Assembly (NCBI GenBank): GCA_039934295.1
Contig: JBDTMN010000005.1
Span: 921-64,920 of the forward strand
Reading direction: 5' to 3'
Source of the DNA: Candidatus Tayloriibacteriota bacterium
GTDB taxonomy: Bacteria > Patescibacteriota > Minisyncoccia > Phycocordibacterales > HO2-43-120
DNA length: 64,000 nt
Shown here: one piece after another, positions 47,079-58,061 of the stretch
Numbering within the stretch: the stretch's first letter is position 1
How the letters are laid out: the number at the start of each line of letters is the position of its first letter
The notes under the pieces: model-generated
The model's database searches: none
Seen by the model: only the letters and a program-made list of their open reading frames with translations
Told to the model about the DNA's origin: nothing
Position numbers and translations under genes: made by a program

Positions 47079-47744
47079 AAAACAAAATTTTTAATTCGAA
47101 CTCCGACGCGCTTCGCTGTCGGAGCCCCGACCTTTCAGAGCGTCGGGGTTGAAAAACTAAGCTTTAGGCTCCAGCGTTGAAATAGCTGGAGACCGTGTTT
47201 GCTTCTCTTTGAGAATCATCTCAATTTGAAAGCGAGGGGACGTTGCAGGAAACTGGATGGGATCGCATGTGTACGTGCGCCCCATGGAGGGAGTTCCTCT
47301 GCAACGCCCCGAAAGAGCAAACCGTCGATGGCCGGATCACCTCATTTCTCATTTAAGACAACTGCAGTTGCGAGAATGACCCAGCCACCGAGGTCTGGAA
47401 GCAGGGTAACCTATTGGTCACCCGCATTTGCGGCTCCCGGCCGCGGTTTAATTTTAATGACGTGCTCCCAAAACTTAGTTTTTCAATTCCGACCGAAGTC
47501 GGAGCTCAAGATTCGACAAGTAAAATAATAAGTTTGCAAAGTGGAAAGGTATCAAGTTATAAAGCAAGAATTTTCTTAACTTTAAAACCTTATAACTTTC
47601 CACTTTATAACTTACTTTGTGGTTTACAAATTTCCTAATAGGAATTCGACGAATTAGTACTTCTCGGCTCAACACATTACTGTGCGTACACCTGAAGCCT
47701 ATCAACGTAATAATCTCTTACGGGTCTGTCCCGCGCGAAGCGCG

Positions 47745-47870
47745 CAAGATACGAGTTTGTAAAGTAGAAAGTTATAAAGTTATAAAGTCAGAGAAGAATT
47801 CTCTTAACTTTATAACTTTATAAACCTTATAACTTTATAACTTATACTCTGTGTGCTTCGCACGGATCGA
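47745..47870 (-). repeat. long AT-rich hairpin insertion (GTTTGTAAAGTAGAAAGTTATAAAGTTATAAAG...CTTTATAACTTTATAAAC) in the 23S 3' domain
   Basis: Near-identical copies at 57225..57355 and 55625..55745; a shorter copy at 47520..47610. Confidence 0.75.
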
Positions 47871-48150
47871 TTCCTCATCTTGAAGTAGGCTTCCCTCTTA
47901 GATGCTTTCAGAGGTTATCCCTTCCGAACATAGCTACCCAGCGTTCCACCTGGCGGCAGAGCTGGTACACCAGAGGTTCGTTCACTCCGGTCCTCTCGTC
48001 ATGTTTTTACCCCCTATTTCTAGGAGCATAGACTATATCTTCACCCTCTCTTTCGAGGAGGGGTTGGCATGTTACCTACATATGCCTGCCCTGAATTTCA
48101 TTGAAAGGCTTTCCAGCGATACATAAGTCTCTCCGTTTAAGGATCAGTCG

Positions 48151-48633
48151 TTACGGGGTCAAACCTAAAATAGTTAACAACTCATCACGCGTCTTCTTTT
48201 TCTTAGTTACATAGTTTTCACTCTGAATAACTAAAATAAAGTCAACGAGCTCTATTAATTGCTTGCGAGTTAGTTTTTTAAATTTTGTAGAGGAAAGAAT
48301 TCTGCATGCGCTAAAAAGTGCAATGCTTTGAAGTTTTTTAAATCGCATATAAGGCATAAGCTTTTTTAGAATTTCTTCTATTTGCTTGTAGCCATTTATT
48401 CGAAGTTCGGTCATTCCATCATTTCTTCTAGAAATATAACCGATATCAAAAACTTCTCTTATCCAATACAAAGATTTCTCATGCCGAGTATCTTGATAGA
48501 AACAGATGACGGGCATAAATCGTATTCCGATGTTACCGTCTTTCCGTTTCTTGATCTGAAGCATTAAGCTTCCATCACCATCAAGAAAACCAGCAATATA
48601 TGCTAACTCTACTTTTTTAGATCGACTTCCCAC
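48151..48633 (-). CDS. LAGLIDADG homing endonuclease (single-motif type)
   Basis: LAYIAGFLDGDGSL motif; 160 aa; inside the 23S intron. Confidence 0.8.
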   Translation of the reverse strand: MGSRSKKVELAYIAGFLDGDGSLMLQIKKRKDGNIGIRFMPVICFYQDTRHEKSLYWIREVFDIGYISRRNDGMTELRINGYKQIEEILKKLMPYMRFKKLQSIALFSACRILSSTKFKKLTRKQLIELVDFILVIQSENYVTKKKKTRDELLTILGLTP

Positions 48634-48988
48634 GGTATTATCTTATCATTTCTGGTCCTCAAGTAAATTAGCCAACGGACCGTTAAAGCTTAATCTACCT
48701 TGATAGAAAACCTAAATGATGAAGACTCCACCGTTATAAGCCAAATTGTCATCGCAAATTTCTTCGCGAAGTAGCATGGACCCATTCGGGTCTACTAGGA
48801 GCAAATCTTCTCAAGAATCAACGCCTGCAGTAGATAGGAGACCAACCTGTCTCACGCAATAGTAGCTGTTAGCTTCTAGCTATAAGCTATTAGCTTAACA
48901 ACGCCGCCGTTACCGGCGGGATCGGACTGGAACTTAATCCCTCGCTTGCGCTTGGGACTGTTGACGTTCAGTCTCTACGGGGATAAAT

Positions 48989-54560: not shown

Positions 54561-54835
54561 CGGTCAAGTTTATAGTTACGGCCGACATTCACCCGGGCTT
54601 ATATCAATCACCACCCACATCGTGCTGGGCACGATGTGGAGATTCAAGAATCATGATTCATGATTCAAGATTCTCCACATCACGTTCAACGTGATGTGGA
54701 CGACGTCGATATTTGACCTTCGGGCATTGGTCAAGTGTCACCCCCTATACATCCTCTTGCGAGTTCGCAGGGAGCTGTGTTTTTGATAAACAGTTGCCAG
54801 AGATACTTTAGCTGCGTCCTCGCGCGGAACGCGCG

Positions 54836-54955
54836 AACACTGAACTGAAGCAGAATCGAACACAGAACTGACACTGAACCCTATGGTTCTGCGTCTGTTC
54901 CGTGTCCCACCGTTTCTGGCGGGATTCCGTCTTGTTCCGTGCTCTTGTGCTCCGC
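54836..54955 (-). repeat. diverged copy of the pilus-operon ~95-nt element inside the 23S rRNA gene
   Basis: CACTGAACTGAAGCAGAATCGAACACAGAACTGACACTGAACC...GTTCCGTGTCCC...GTTCCGTGCTCTTGTG shares the CACTGAACTGA / CGGAAC / GTTCCGTG blocks with the 1781..1876 family. Confidence 0.5.
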
Positions 54956-55141
54956 ACAAGGAAAGCCTTATTCCGAAGTTACGGCTGCTTTTTTGCCGAG
55001 TTCCTTGGGGAAATTTCACTCGTTCGCCTTGCTCTACTCGAGCTGACTACCTGTGTCGGTTTACGGTACGGTTCTAGCATGTATAAATTTAGAGACTTTT
55101 CTTGGAAGCGTGCTTTGTCCTGTTTCGCGCGCAGCGCACGA

Positions 55142-55260
55142 CCACTGAACTGACTCGGAATATAAACACGGAACGATACTGAACCTGTAGCGGTTCCGCG
55201 TTTTTTCCGTGTTCCGCCTCGTGAGGCGGAGTTCCGTCTTGTTCCGTGCTCTTGTGCCAC
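55142..55260 (-). repeat. second diverged copy of the ~95-nt element inside the 23S rRNA gene
   Basis: CCACTGAACTGACTCGGAATATAAACACGGAACGATACTGAACC...GGTTCCG...TTCCGTGTTCC...GTTCCGTGCTCTTGTG. Confidence 0.55.
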
Positions 55261-58061
55261 GCACGATTCTCGCCCTGCTTAAAGTCGCCATTGAAGGCAG
55301 ACTTCCGGATTTTCCAGGAAATCCATCTTGCAGTACGAACGTCAAATCCGATAATGCGCAAGACATACTACACTCCGTCATCCCATCATTACATGCTAAA
55401 GTCATGGAATATTAACCATGTGTCCGTCGGGTGCGGTTTTCACCATTCCCTTAGGGCCGACTCACCCTTGGCTGATTGACATCGCCAAGGAAACCTTAGT
55501 CTTTCGGCGTGGAGGGTTCTCACCTCCATTGCGGTTACTTGTGCCAACATTCTTACTTCGCAACGCTCCACCATGGGTCACCCCTTTGGCTTCATCGCAG
55601 ATGCGAATACTCTCCTACCACGCACGCGCAAAGCGCGTAAGATACAAGTTTGTAAAGTAGAAAGTTATAAAGTTATAAAGCAAGAGGAATCCTCTTAACT
55701 TGATAACTTTATGAACCTTATAACCTTATAACTTCTTGTCCTACGTGCCCTGCACGTACATCCTCAGTTTCGGTACTACACTTGAGCCCCGATTATCTTC
55801 GGCGCAGAATCTCTCGATGAGTGAGCTGTTACGCTTTCTTTAAATGATGGCTGCTTCTAAGCCAACATCCTCATTGTCGGAGAAATTCCACCACCTTACT
55901 TGCACTTAGTGTAGATTTAGGGACCTTAAATAGAGATCTAGGCTGTTTCCTTTTTGACCAGTGGAGCTTAGCCCCCACGGTCTAACTGCCGAGTAGTAAC
56001 TTTCCGTATTCGGAGTTTGATAGGATTCGCGATCTTTCGACCTGTCGAATCCTTCCAGTGCTCTACCCCGGAAAGGTTCACTCGACGCTAGCCCAAAAGC
56101 TATTTCGGAGAGAACCAGCTATTACCAAGTTCGATTAGCTTTTCACTTCTTACCCCAGGTCATCCGATAGTATTGCACGGCTAACCAGTTCGGGCCTTCC
56201 TTTTGATTTCTCAAAAGTTCACCCTGCCCAGGGCAAGCTCACTTTGGCTTCGGGTCTGATGTAATGTACTTATTCGCGCTATTAACACTCGGTTTCCCTA
56301 TGGCTCCACCCTTTTAAGGCTTAGCCTTGCACATTAAATCAACTCGTTGGCTCATTCTTCAATAGGCACGCCATGACGGACAGGATTCAGTTTGTAAGTT
56401 TGCTCGCAGACTCGCTTTAAGTTTGTAAGTTTGTAAGTTTTTGAATTCAACTTACCAACTTATAACTTAAGCGAAGCGTAACTTATAAACTAAGTCCTGC
56501 CCGCTCTGACTCCTTGTAAGCATATAGTTTCAGGTCTATTTCACTCCCCTCTCCGGGGTTCTTTTCACCTTTCCCTCACGGTACTAGTTCACTATCGATC
56601 TAGAAGTGTATTTAGCCTTACCGGTTAGTTCCGGCAAATTCCTCCGAGCCATTCGTGTCTCGAAGTACTCAAGAACAGTAACAAAGAAGATTCTACATTT
56701 TCACCTACAGGGCCATTACCTTCTTGGGCTTAGCTTTCCAGCTAATTCGGTTAATATAGAATTTTGTAACTTCTCTGGTATAAATACCACGCTACTGCCT
56801 TATAACACCGCGCACCGCACGAAAGCGCGGTGCAGAATCTTGATTCAGGATTCAAGATTCAGGAGCGCGCAAAGCGCGCAATTCTTGAATCGTGAATCAT
56901 GTCTCTTGAATCTGCATCGAACCTTTGTGAGATGCACGGTTTGGGCTCTTTCCTTTTCGCTCGCCGCTATTCAGGAAATAACAATTGTTCTTTTTTCCTC
57001 CAGGTACTGAAATGTTTTACTTCCCTGGGTATGCTTTCAGCACTAACGTGCTGAATCTCGTGCAAGCACGAGGGGTTTCCCCATTCGGAGATCTCCGGAT
57101 CAAAGGTTGCTTGGCACCTCCCCGAAGCGTATCGCCGCCAGACTGCGTCCTTCATCGCCTCTTCTAGTCAAGGCATCCACCATATGCTCTTTATTTCCTA
57201 TTAGGAAATTTATAAACCACACTTGCGCAAAGCGCACAAGATACGAGTTTGTAAAGTAGAAAGTTATAACGTTATAAAGTCAGAGAAGACTTCTCTTAAC
57301 TTTATAACTTTATAAACTTTATAACTTTATAACTTATATTCTGCGTGCTTTGCACAAGCTTCACGCTCCCGCACACACCGCATGTGGCGCGAGAACACGA
57401 AATTACTTATTTTACCTGTTGTTATTTCCTCCTCTTGAAAGAAGAAATAACCTTCCGTAACACTTTCGCGTCACGGGATTGCCTCCAAACGATCTAACGT
57501 TTAAAAAGCTATTCCACCTCCGACAAATAAAGACCCCTTCTCTCGCCTGTTGGCGGAGAAAAAGCTTGCCGGGAATGGTTTGAAGTTGTCAATGAATCAT
57601 GCGTTCTGTTTGACACTCTTTCTGTACCCTCGAAATCTTTCAAACCTTTGAAAAATTTCGAGGATAAGGATTACGATTCGGCCTAAATTTTAAACAAAAA
57701 AACCGCTCTATTCGCGCGGTTGAGTAAGACAACACAAAAAGTGGGCCGTTACTTTTTCCGCTTAAATTTAATGGTGTTTAACATACGTCTTTATGTGAAA
57801 AATAGTATAGCGCCACGGCGTTTTTTTGTCAATAAAAAAATCAATCGAGTAAACCGTGTAAAACTATCCGATATGGATATGGTGAAAAACCTTGAAAAAC
57901 TGGGGCTAATTAGGGGGAAAAGGTAAAATCGGCCTTTCTTTATGCACATCTTTTCCCCAGATTTTCCCCAGATTTGCTCTATTATTACGACTATTGAAAG
58001 ATCGCCAAATGCAAAATCCCGCTTGCGCGGGATTTTGCATAACGAAACTTTCATAGAAACC

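Follow-up and report, generated by a model that had tools for sequence, protein, structure and literature searches.

The locus described here raises the question of how much foreign sequence a bacterial ribosomal RNA (rRNA) gene can hold and still encode a working part of the ribosome. It is a 23S rRNA gene of about 9.5 kb in a 64,000-nt stretch of DNA from Candidatus Tayloriibacteriota bacterium (NCBI assembly GCA_039934295.1, contig JBDTMN010000005.1, positions 921 to 64,920 of the forward strand), referred to throughout as the window. Our analysis makes it very probable that this is a functional 23S gene of Candidatus Taylorbacteria, within the candidate phyla radiation (CPR), carrying nine group I introns together with hairpins that RNase III most likely removes as intervening sequences (IVS). 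An earlier note, made from the letters of this DNA, had proposed a CPR host and a 23S gene that group I introns had enlarged to about 9.5 kb; the expansion was borne out by Rfam models, by alignment blocks with Escherichia coli and by the predicted exon junctions, and the host by NCBI, which names one intron open reading frame (ORF) as a Candidatus Taylorbacteria bacterium protein.

The inserts comprise nine introns (5,832 nt) and seven hairpins (835 nt), about 6,670 nt in total or some 70% of the gene, with 15 inserts of at least 100 nt and one of 78 nt. The product obtained by splicing in silico (3,718 nt) was 67% identical to E. coli 23S rRNA, with 86% identity in the region of the peptidyl-transferase centre (PTC), and all 32 of the essential nucleotides checked in helix 69 (H69; other helices are numbered likewise), the P loop, the A loop, the PTC and the sarcin-ricin loop were conserved.

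The 23S rRNA gene and its boundaries

The Rfam model LSU_rRNA_bacteria (RF02541) matched the minus strand at 57189-53416 (model positions 15-2044, 1359 bits) and again at 53358-53178, and its coverage of the gene ended at position 2284 of 2925. The model loses the 3' part of the gene because the remaining exons are very short, so that rRNA-based completeness checks and phylogenies for CPR bacteria can be affected; standard rRNA annotation fails on genes of this type. BLAST of the E. coli 23S sequence against the minus strand gave sixteen collinear blocks, from E. coli position (Ec) 13 to Ec 2884, the last ending at about 47653. The gene is bracketed by a 27-nt inverted repeat (57221-57195 / 47644-47618), which corresponds to helix 1 plus the processing stem, and the gene would be transcribed together with the 5S gene from the minus strand.

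47633..57206, minus strand: 23S rRNA gene (ends extrapolated from the alignment with E. coli, to within about 10 nt)
46974..47081, minus strand: 5S rRNA (Rfam RF00001, 77.8 bits)
57195..57221, minus strand: predicted helix 1 and processing stem, 5' arm (27 nt, 96% complementary to 47618-47644)
47618..47644, minus strand: predicted helix 1 and processing stem, 3' arm (pairs with 57195-57221)

Nine group I introns

Intron boundaries were set by aligning the exon ends to E. coli and then applying the group I rule, under which the exon ends in U and the intron in G (omega-G). The nine insertions delimited in this way, named by E. coli position and assigned to group I on their sequence features, are as follows:

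54230..54571, minus strand: intron L1917, 342 nt, no ORF; last nucleotide A; Rfam Intron_gpI 68.7 bits, above the gathering score
53483..54195, minus strand: intron L1951, 713 nt, LAGLIDADG_1 gene; U / G ends; Rfam 23.4 bits; P, Q, R and S elements present
52390..53173, minus strand: intron L2262, 784 nt, orphan ORF in the loop of paired region 6 (P6); Rfam 44.7 bits, E=6e-9; U / omega-G ends
51138..52199, minus strand: intron L2449, 1,062 nt, LAGLIDADG_2 gene in the P6 loop; U / omega-G ends
50293..51113, minus strand: intron L2473, 821 nt, LAGLIDADG_2 gene; Rfam 28.5 bits, E=4.7e-4; U / omega-G ends
49974..50254, minus strand: intron L2511, 281 nt, no ORF; Rfam 49.5 bits, full-length alignment; U / omega-G ends
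49562..49951, minus strand: intron L2533, 390 nt, no ORF, in the H91 loop; R-like and S-like elements, P9 hairpin
48857..49501, minus strand: intron L2593, 645 nt, orphan ORF in the P6 loop; Rfam 21.8 bits, E=0.049; U / omega-G ends
48000..48793, minus strand: intron L2656, 794 nt, LAGLIDADG_1 gene, within the sarcin-ricin loop; Rfam 34.8 bits, E=6e-6; U / omega-G ends

The introns are confined to domains IV-VI (the H69-H71 region, the peptidyl-transferase ring, H91 and the sarcin-ricin loop), and the internal exons between them measure, in order, 34, 309, 190, 24, 38, 22, 60 and 63 nt. Four introns contain a LAGLIDADG gene, two an orphan helical ORF and three no ORF. The mapping to E. coli numbering that the earlier note had called for thus gives nine sites, from L1917 to L2656, where the note had counted about seven introns; the group I kind stood but the number did not, the seven S elements on which it was founded missing L2533 (49951-49562) and L2593 (49501-48857). 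The ORF inside L2593 had itself been listed, and it is present.

Rfam Intron_gpI (RF00028) matched eight of the nine introns with scores from 68.7 down to 19.8 bits, L1917 alone exceeding the gathering score of 50 bits. Five to six introns thus have strong covariance-model support; that for L1951, L2593 and L2533 is weaker, with ORFs that break up or overlap the core among these. The unmatched intron, L2449, carries exact P, Q, R and S elements, and its lack of an Rfam match is explained by the 600-nt ORF that splits its core. The S element GACTATATCTTCA (with up to two mismatches) was located at 48031, 50003, 50317, 51155, 52495 and 53513, with a more diverged copy at about 54331; TAGTCTCTGA stands at 52593 and 54394, and TTGACCCCGTAACGAC, ACCGTGGGAAGTCG and GGCTTATAACGGAG recur in four copies each. 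Together these recurrent blocks represent P, Q, R and S, the classical elements of the group I intron core. The S elements had been read beforehand on the right strand with small errors of coordinate, the first copy being placed 54 nt away at 47977; the R-like elements TAGTCTCTGA were real and slightly displaced (52598 and 54388), and the conserved blocks were all present, TTGACCCCGTAACGAC in four copies rather than five.

The 5' exon ends in U in all introns except L2533, and the intron ends in G in all except L1917. The full-length 23S genes mapped for comparison, 54 with that of the window, were fetched via homologs of the L1951 endonuclease and are therefore biased towards genes with that endonuclease. 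In a junction test, the predicted ligated 28-mers (14 + 14 nt) were sought uninterrupted in the 23S genes of other genomes or of E. coli, and all nine were found, seven of them exactly and those of L2473 and L2511 within one or two mismatches; the L1951 junction was compared with E. coli only, since every fetched locus carries an L1951 intron. Exact junctions were recovered for L2262 (six intron-less sequences), L2449 (six sequences), L2533 (four other genomes), L2593 (three genomes) and L2656 (two genomes). In the proposed mechanism each intron would fold its P3-P9 core, and two guanosine-initiated transesterifications would excise it and ligate the exons, regenerating the universally conserved rRNA sequence.

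Several of these sites are occupied elsewhere. The L1951 intron is 83-85% identical to those of loci L003 and L006, the latter from a second Taylorbacteria genome (GCA_001821215.1); introns homologous to L2656 occur in L006, L022, L029 and L030; a homologous ORF-less intron of 259 nt lies at the L2473 site of a Ca. Dormibacteria genome (L036); and L012 has an intron at the L2511 site with a similar start and end. Sites L2262, L2449, L2593 and L2656 are occupied in several other genomes, L2449 being the site of the yeast omega intron and L2593 that of I-CreI. L2533 had no nucleotide homolog in 80 related loci. A literature search by intron site name (L2473, L2511, L2533 and others) returned only unrelated papers.

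Functionality and integrity of the gene

Five features of the array weigh against the interpretation proposed here. L1917 ends in ...CCATGAAATA, and no register puts a G at its 3' splice site; L2533 is preceded by A, not U, in every possible register; the Rfam score of L2533 is low (19.8 bits, E=0.013); the 22-38-nt micro-exons between large introns make the order of folding and splicing non-trivial; and the H68 hairpin insert, described below, lies near the subunit interface, where a break or an extension could matter. The missing terminal G of L1917 and the missing U at the 5' splice site of L2533, together with the heavy burden of nine introns with micro-exons, are also what would favour a decaying pseudogene, or a gene in which some introns no longer splice. 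We consider this very unlikely: the exons are intact with their essential nucleotides conserved, CPR genomes usually have a single rRNA copy (PMC11270868), and the order L10/L12 - 23S - 5S - VWA - FtsW is common to the window and two relatives without change. A pseudogene was rejected on the conservation of the essential nucleotides in the spliced product.

With regard to L1917, the same pattern recovered 15 other introns at this site in the fetched loci, of which 14 have a terminal G. The guide GACCGTT-GTAGTT of the window intron pairs with both exon ends, forming P1 with AACUAU and P10 with AACGGUC, and hence specifies the canonical junction.

The metagenomic source of the sequence, whose samples are represented by runs SRR26386571 and SRR26386572, and the repetition of introns and hairpins within it, also leave room for an assembly chimera of reads from different organisms. 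However, Logan contigs from two sequencing runs were 100% identical to 54224-49529 (4,696 bp) and 53780-52544 (1,237 bp), and every ligated junction restores continuous 23S sequence, which makes a chimera extremely improbable; it was rejected because the independent contigs agree at 100% identity over six introns.

LAGLIDADG genes and orphan frames in the introns

The four LAGLIDADG ORFs and two non-nuclease helical ORFs listed in the earlier note were all confirmed, the former at 48 to 153 bits against Pfam curated cut-offs of 23-25 and the latter as frames matching no Pfam family above its curated cut-off:

53456..53977, minus strand: LAGLIDADG_1 ORF in L1951 (173 aa, single-domain; Pfam E=5.1e-26)
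48151..48633, minus strand: LAGLIDADG_1 ORF in L2656 (160 aa, single-domain; Pfam E=2.5e-12)
51272..51877, minus strand: LAGLIDADG_2 ORF in L2449 (201 aa; Pfam E=1.8e-32)
50399..50998, minus strand: LAGLIDADG_2 ORF in L2473 (199 aa; Pfam E=7.1e-45)
52614..52913, minus strand: orphan ORF in the P6 loop of L2262 (99 aa, predicted two-helix hairpin; AlphaFold pLDDT 83)
48989..49213, minus strand: orphan ORF in the P6 loop of L2593 (74 aa, predicted single long helix; AlphaFold pLDDT 91)

Three of the four LAGLIDADG ORFs occupy the P6 loop, where they overlap the Q and R elements at their ends, and that of L1951 is placed further 3', passing through the S element and reading its last 27 nt within the 3' exon. 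The L1951 endonuclease has 1,218 homologs at E<=1e-10, and its relatives in the PDB belong to the I-OnuI / I-SmaMI family, the protein aligning with each half of the monomeric I-OnuI-family enzymes. By eye, its motifs resemble those of I-ShaI as given in the supplement of PMC11270868, a LAGLIDADG_1 enzyme of CPR rRNA introns that was shown to cut its own insertion site (PMC11270868). The four endonucleases would similarly cut intron-less alleles and so spread their introns by homing. The introns that lack an ORF or carry an orphan one most likely derive from endonuclease-bearing introns through loss or replacement of that gene.

The orphan ORFs are of less certain status. Each matched only itself in a word-indexed search of 5.8 billion clustered proteins and an exhaustive full HMMER search of 1.84 billion representatives, neither had a significant PHROGs match, and the two are unrelated to each other; the maturase-like role that conservation in homologous introns would have suggested for them therefore found no support. 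Chance open frames in A-rich intron loops would account for the lack of homologs, of family matches and of an obvious ribosome-binding site, and a sequence composed of 40-45% A disfavours stop codons. Against this, their lengths were reached in only 1 of 2,000 (99 aa) and 4 of 2,000 (74 aa) composition-matched shuffles, their codons have the G-rich first and A-rich second positions of real genes, they fill the P6 loop, the same loop that holds three of the four endonuclease genes, and the single-sequence structure predictions are fairly confident and all-helical. Chance frames are thus a substantial possibility, to which we give somewhat less than even weight as against genuine genes specific to this lineage. 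In L2593 the ORF segment is flanked by the direct repeat AGATTTATCC.

Tandem A[GC]CTAA repeats were also observed on the minus strand, at 8335-8378, 9146-9189, 45753-45796, 59870-59913, 61487-61530 and 61670-61713, where they stop a few bases before several start codons and in many cases supply the 3' arm of a hairpin between genes. In the two orphan-ORF introns, L2593 (48861-48904) and L2262 (52403-52446), the final ~45 nt consist of this repeat as well.

Hairpin inserts and their probable fate

After intron removal, the 23S gene retains seven insertions relative to E. coli, each of which folds as a long, near-perfect hairpin of about 30-60 paired positions (z-scores of -4 to -10.5 against shuffles). 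Two further hairpins stand outside the gene, in its leader and trailer. The helix names given here derive from E. coli coordinates and the known 23S secondary structure, not from a structural alignment.

57222..57358, minus strand: leader hairpin, family 1, directly 5' of the processing stem (z -9.0)
56765..56930, minus strand: hairpin after Ec 281 (166 nt; free energy, dG, -64.6; z -4.1)
56386..56498, minus strand: hairpin in H25, Ec 544 (113 nt; z -6.7)
55637..55756, minus strand: hairpin in H45, Ec 1168, family 1 (120 nt; z -10.5)
55127..55302, minus strand: hairpin in H58, Ec 1503-1542, family 2 (~137 nt extra)
54798..54964, minus strand: hairpin in H63, Ec 1704-1769, family 2 (~102 nt extra)
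54621..54698, minus strand: hairpin in H68, Ec 1868 (78 nt; z -8.0)
47737..47873, minus strand: hairpin in H98, Ec 2782-2800, family 1 (~119 nt extra; z -8.3)
47520..47617, minus strand: trailer hairpin, diverged family 1, directly 3' of the processing stem (z -6.0)

The 'protein-free expansions' of the earlier note are accordingly present, but they are not one-off insertions: they form repeated families that extend to the leader, the trailer and the spacers between protein genes. The H98 insert shares 94% identity over 131 nt with the leader hairpin, and identity to the H45 insert is 91% for the H98 copy and 84% for the leader copy; the four copies of family 1 (H45, H98, leader and trailer) have a consensus of 53 bp, five of them through compensatory changes. 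Between the H58 and H63 inserts identity is 78% over 141 nt, the 41-nt arm of the H58 insert matches four intergenic hairpins at 85% identity, and the nt-281 and H68 inserts share GATTCAAGAATC-type arms. Within the window, the family 1 motif is found in the rRNA operon only. A search of the GTDB species representatives for this motif (CTACTTTACAAACTYGTATCTT) gave 0 matches, which means that this genome and any close relatives with the element are absent from the representative set.

The four intergenic hairpins themselves (~85 nt, minus strand: 1790-1876, 2949-3035, 3439-3523 and 7108-7193) share a 41-nt arm that is 95-100% identical, and each is placed precisely in the gap that separates a gene's stop codon from the ATG of the following gene. 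A role as inter-cistronic processing sites is possible.

Classical IVS take the form of a stem-loop replacing the tip of a variable helix, namely H9, H25 or H45, and this arrangement was found at H25 and H45, the classical sites of RNase III-excised IVS (PMC4990558); the other five inserts lie at sites that are not classical for IVS. We propose that the hairpins, mostly located at the tips of surface-exposed variable helices, would be excised by RNase III without re-ligation, leaving a fragmented 23S rRNA. Excision is favoured because the hairpins are long duplexes, because some are near-copies of a leader hairpin that is discarded anyway, and because the RNase III gene rnc is retained in CPR genomes (PMC12641178).

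As the chief alternative, the hairpins might be kept in the mature rRNA as bacterial expansion segments, that is, as surface-exposed extensions of helices. They occupy variable regions such as H25, H45, H58, H63 and H98, eukaryotic and archaeal expansion segments sit on the same helices, and the positions are common to L006 and hence stable features of the lineage. The sequences, however, are genome-specific and turn over quickly, unlike structural rRNA; long, near-perfect duplexes are ideal substrates for RNase III; and the H98 copy is nearly identical to a leader hairpin that, by its position, is discarded during processing. Retention in the mature rRNA is on these grounds rather unlikely, and excision by RNase III remains our preferred interpretation.

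Hairpin paralogy in other genomes

The second Taylorbacteria genome, L006, has hairpins in the same regions as the window gene but of a different sequence family, with four copies mutually 88-98% identical. Across the 54-gene set, inserts in different helices were paralogous in 7 of the 16 genes with at least two short inserts, and in all seven of those with at least five, and in four genes an insert was paralogous to the leader or trailer. In a Harrisonbacteria genome (L048), three hairpin copies with sharp ends were 94-99% identical. Such paralogy between short inserts of different helices is not described in Tsurumaki et al. 2024 (PMC11270868), and none was found by full-text literature search.

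The CPR genomes with paralogous inserts within one 23S gene, reaching up to 99% identity over 160 nt, were L006, L016, L017, L018, L035, L048 and L055, each having its own sequence family.

Movement of hairpins between helices could reflect transposition of palindromic elements or gene conversion between palindromes. On the former account the hairpins would be copies of small mobile palindromic DNA, resembling miniature inverted-repeat transposable elements (MITE), repetitive extragenic palindromes (REP) or Rickettsia palindromic elements (RPE), which is compatible with either fate of the RNA. The copies have sharp boundaries and 91-99% identity across helices (H45, H98 and leader in the window; three copies in L048), the arm of the H58 insert recurs in the four intergenic hairpins at 1790-7193, and paralogy is present in every gene with five or more short inserts. 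Like MITE- and REP-like elements, both families have several dispersed copies that end in inverted repeats (four of family 1; two of family 2 plus the four related intergenic hairpins). On the other hand, no target-site duplication was evident at H68 (window compared with L006 and L003) and none was demonstrated at the window copies or the three L048 copies; no transposase was linked to the hairpins, although no search was aimed at transposases; the family 1 motif is confined to the rRNA operon within the window; and gene conversion between pre-existing palindromes would look alike. We therefore regard a mobile-DNA origin as possible but, on balance, doubtful.

A further proposal, to which we give limited credence, is that the hairpins are self-propagating, genome-specific palindromic modules that act as portable RNase III sites and spread, by copying themselves or through gene conversion, among leader and trailer, helix tips and intergenic spacers. 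If true, it would explain the origin and spread of bacterial rRNA IVS, an old open question, would predict a 23S rRNA in up to eight pieces, and would leave the orphan helical ORFs as a second kind of unexplained cargo.

Surroundings of the rRNA genes and other features of the window

An Rfam scan of the 64-kb window detected no 16S gene, and the 23S-5S unit is unlinked to 16S; upstream of it (57360-61500) lie an ORF resembling a mechanosensitive channel and probably rplJ/rplL. The 23S-5S spacer (47082-47515, minus strand, 434 nt) has a GC content of 0.51, compared with 0.36-0.39 just outside the rRNA operon, and folds with a dG of -198 kcal/mol (z = -11 against shuffles), a stem of ~45 bp closing a branched interior. 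It is single-copy in the window, is without counterpart in two relatives (spacers of ~60 and ~175 nt) and had no credible counterpart in Rfam, even with the threshold relaxed to E<=10. The spacer may represent either a structured RNA not yet described or one more inserted element.

In L006, the 5S gene (12691-12891) aligns in two pieces ~100 nt apart, a pattern that suggests an insertion in 5S. Tsurumaki et al. 2024 reported no 5S insertion of 100 bp or more in CPR bacteria (PMC11270868).

Elsewhere in the window, a tRNA-Ile with anticodon UAU (ARAGORN 'tat') was annotated at 30342-30416 on the minus strand, an uncommon bacterial way of reading AUA. Five copies of a ~36-nt repeat with the palindrome CCAAGGGTTACCCTTGG are contained within 2 kb at 62035-63983, and the region 17600-23750 contains several diverged families of direct repeats (40-200 nt, spaced by ~150-300 nt) and resembles a repetitive protein-coding region.

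Comparison with known systems

The gene marks the current upper bound of foreign sequence in a functional-looking bacterial rRNA gene. Nine ribozymes must fold and splice around exons of 22-63 nt that form the catalytic centre of the ribosome, which makes it a good test case for splicing order and ribosome assembly in organisms with few assembly factors, and the hairpin paralogy offers a concrete, testable clue to how rRNA intervening sequences arise and spread.

Among CPR bacteria, insertions of at least 100 bp were reported in 82% of 348 23S genes, with up to 16 insertions per rRNA gene and up to 5,750 bp of insert per 23S among 284 insert-bearing 23S genes (Tsurumaki et al. 2024, PMC11270868). 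The insertions belong to the same classes as here, with group I introns clustered in the 3' part of 23S around the PTC (PMC11270868; Brown et al. 2015 as cited there), and the survey likewise describes single-domain LAGLIDADG_1 or LAGLIDADG_2 introns at sites that include 1917, 1952, 2593 and 2657, as well as short probable IVS at H25 and H45 (PMC11270868). The number of inserts in the window gene falls within the published range, whereas their length, ~6.67 kb, exceeds the 5.75 kb maximum; the earlier note was right in placing the insert load at the high end but understated it. The window gene further differs from those of the survey in its nine group I introns, its orphan ORFs without a Pfam match above cut-off and the paralogy of inserts between helices.

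The window 23S was the largest of the 54 mapped genes, in insert length as well, followed by genes of 7.6, 7.2 and 7.0 kb. By an automatic mapping that merges adjacent introns, the most large inserts in any other mapped gene was six, in an Acidobacteriota metagenome-assembled genome (MAG), L032.

This non-CPR locus (JBFMAU010000161.1) has its six large inserts near 1923, 1951, 2262, 2507, 2594 and 2660, 4.6 kb in total. L1951 introns with a homologous endonuclease are also found in many other non-CPR MAGs (Actinomycetota, Gammaproteobacteria, Chloroflexota), accompanied by introns of the L1917 or L1923 type.

Outside the CPR, the closest analogue is Coxiella burnetii, in which introns at L1917 and L1951 flank a 34-nt exon just as in the window. 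The Coxiella L1951 intron has 720 nt and a LAGLIDADG endonuclease of 157 aa, compared with 713 nt and 173 aa here, and one of the Coxiella introns reportedly also lacks the canonical terminal G. A hairpin IVS at H45, excised by RNase III in Coxiella, has its counterpart in the H45 hairpin of the window; but Coxiella has two introns and one IVS with an S23p ORF, against nine introns and seven ORF-less hairpins here.

The classical IVS of Salmonella, Leptospira, Yersinia, Campylobacter and Alphaproteobacteria are extended stem-loops that take the place of the H25 or H45 tip, as the inserts at these helices do here; in those organisms RNase III cuts them out with no ligation (PMC4990558). The window gene differs in that the nt 281 region, H58, H63, H68 and H98 are also occupied, and that copies are near-identical across helices and the leader.

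REP, Correia and Rickettsia palindromic elements are short hairpin repeats that occur between genes and are tolerated inside RNA and protein genes. Unlike these, the window hairpins show no transposition hallmark that we could find, and most copies are in one rRNA operon.

The L1951 ORF shares Pfam LAGLIDADG_1 and, by eye, the same motifs with I-ShaI and the single-domain LAGLIDADG_1 enzymes of CPR rRNA introns, but it reads 27 nt into the downstream exon.

Several group I introns at conserved large-subunit (LSU) rRNA sites (L1917, L2593), with endonuclease ORFs reaching into the helices of the core, are likewise known from Synechococcus sp. C9 and Fuligo septica; the former has 3 LSU introns and the rDNA of the latter 12 group I introns (PMC1995217). 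The nine introns of the window gene are three times the Synechococcus sp. C9 number. Taken with the CPR survey, the gene is an extreme case of the known insert-rich CPR 23S kind; what appears new, as far as checked, is the atypical splice site of L2533, the orphan ORFs in P6 loops and, most interesting of the three, the paralogy of the hairpins.

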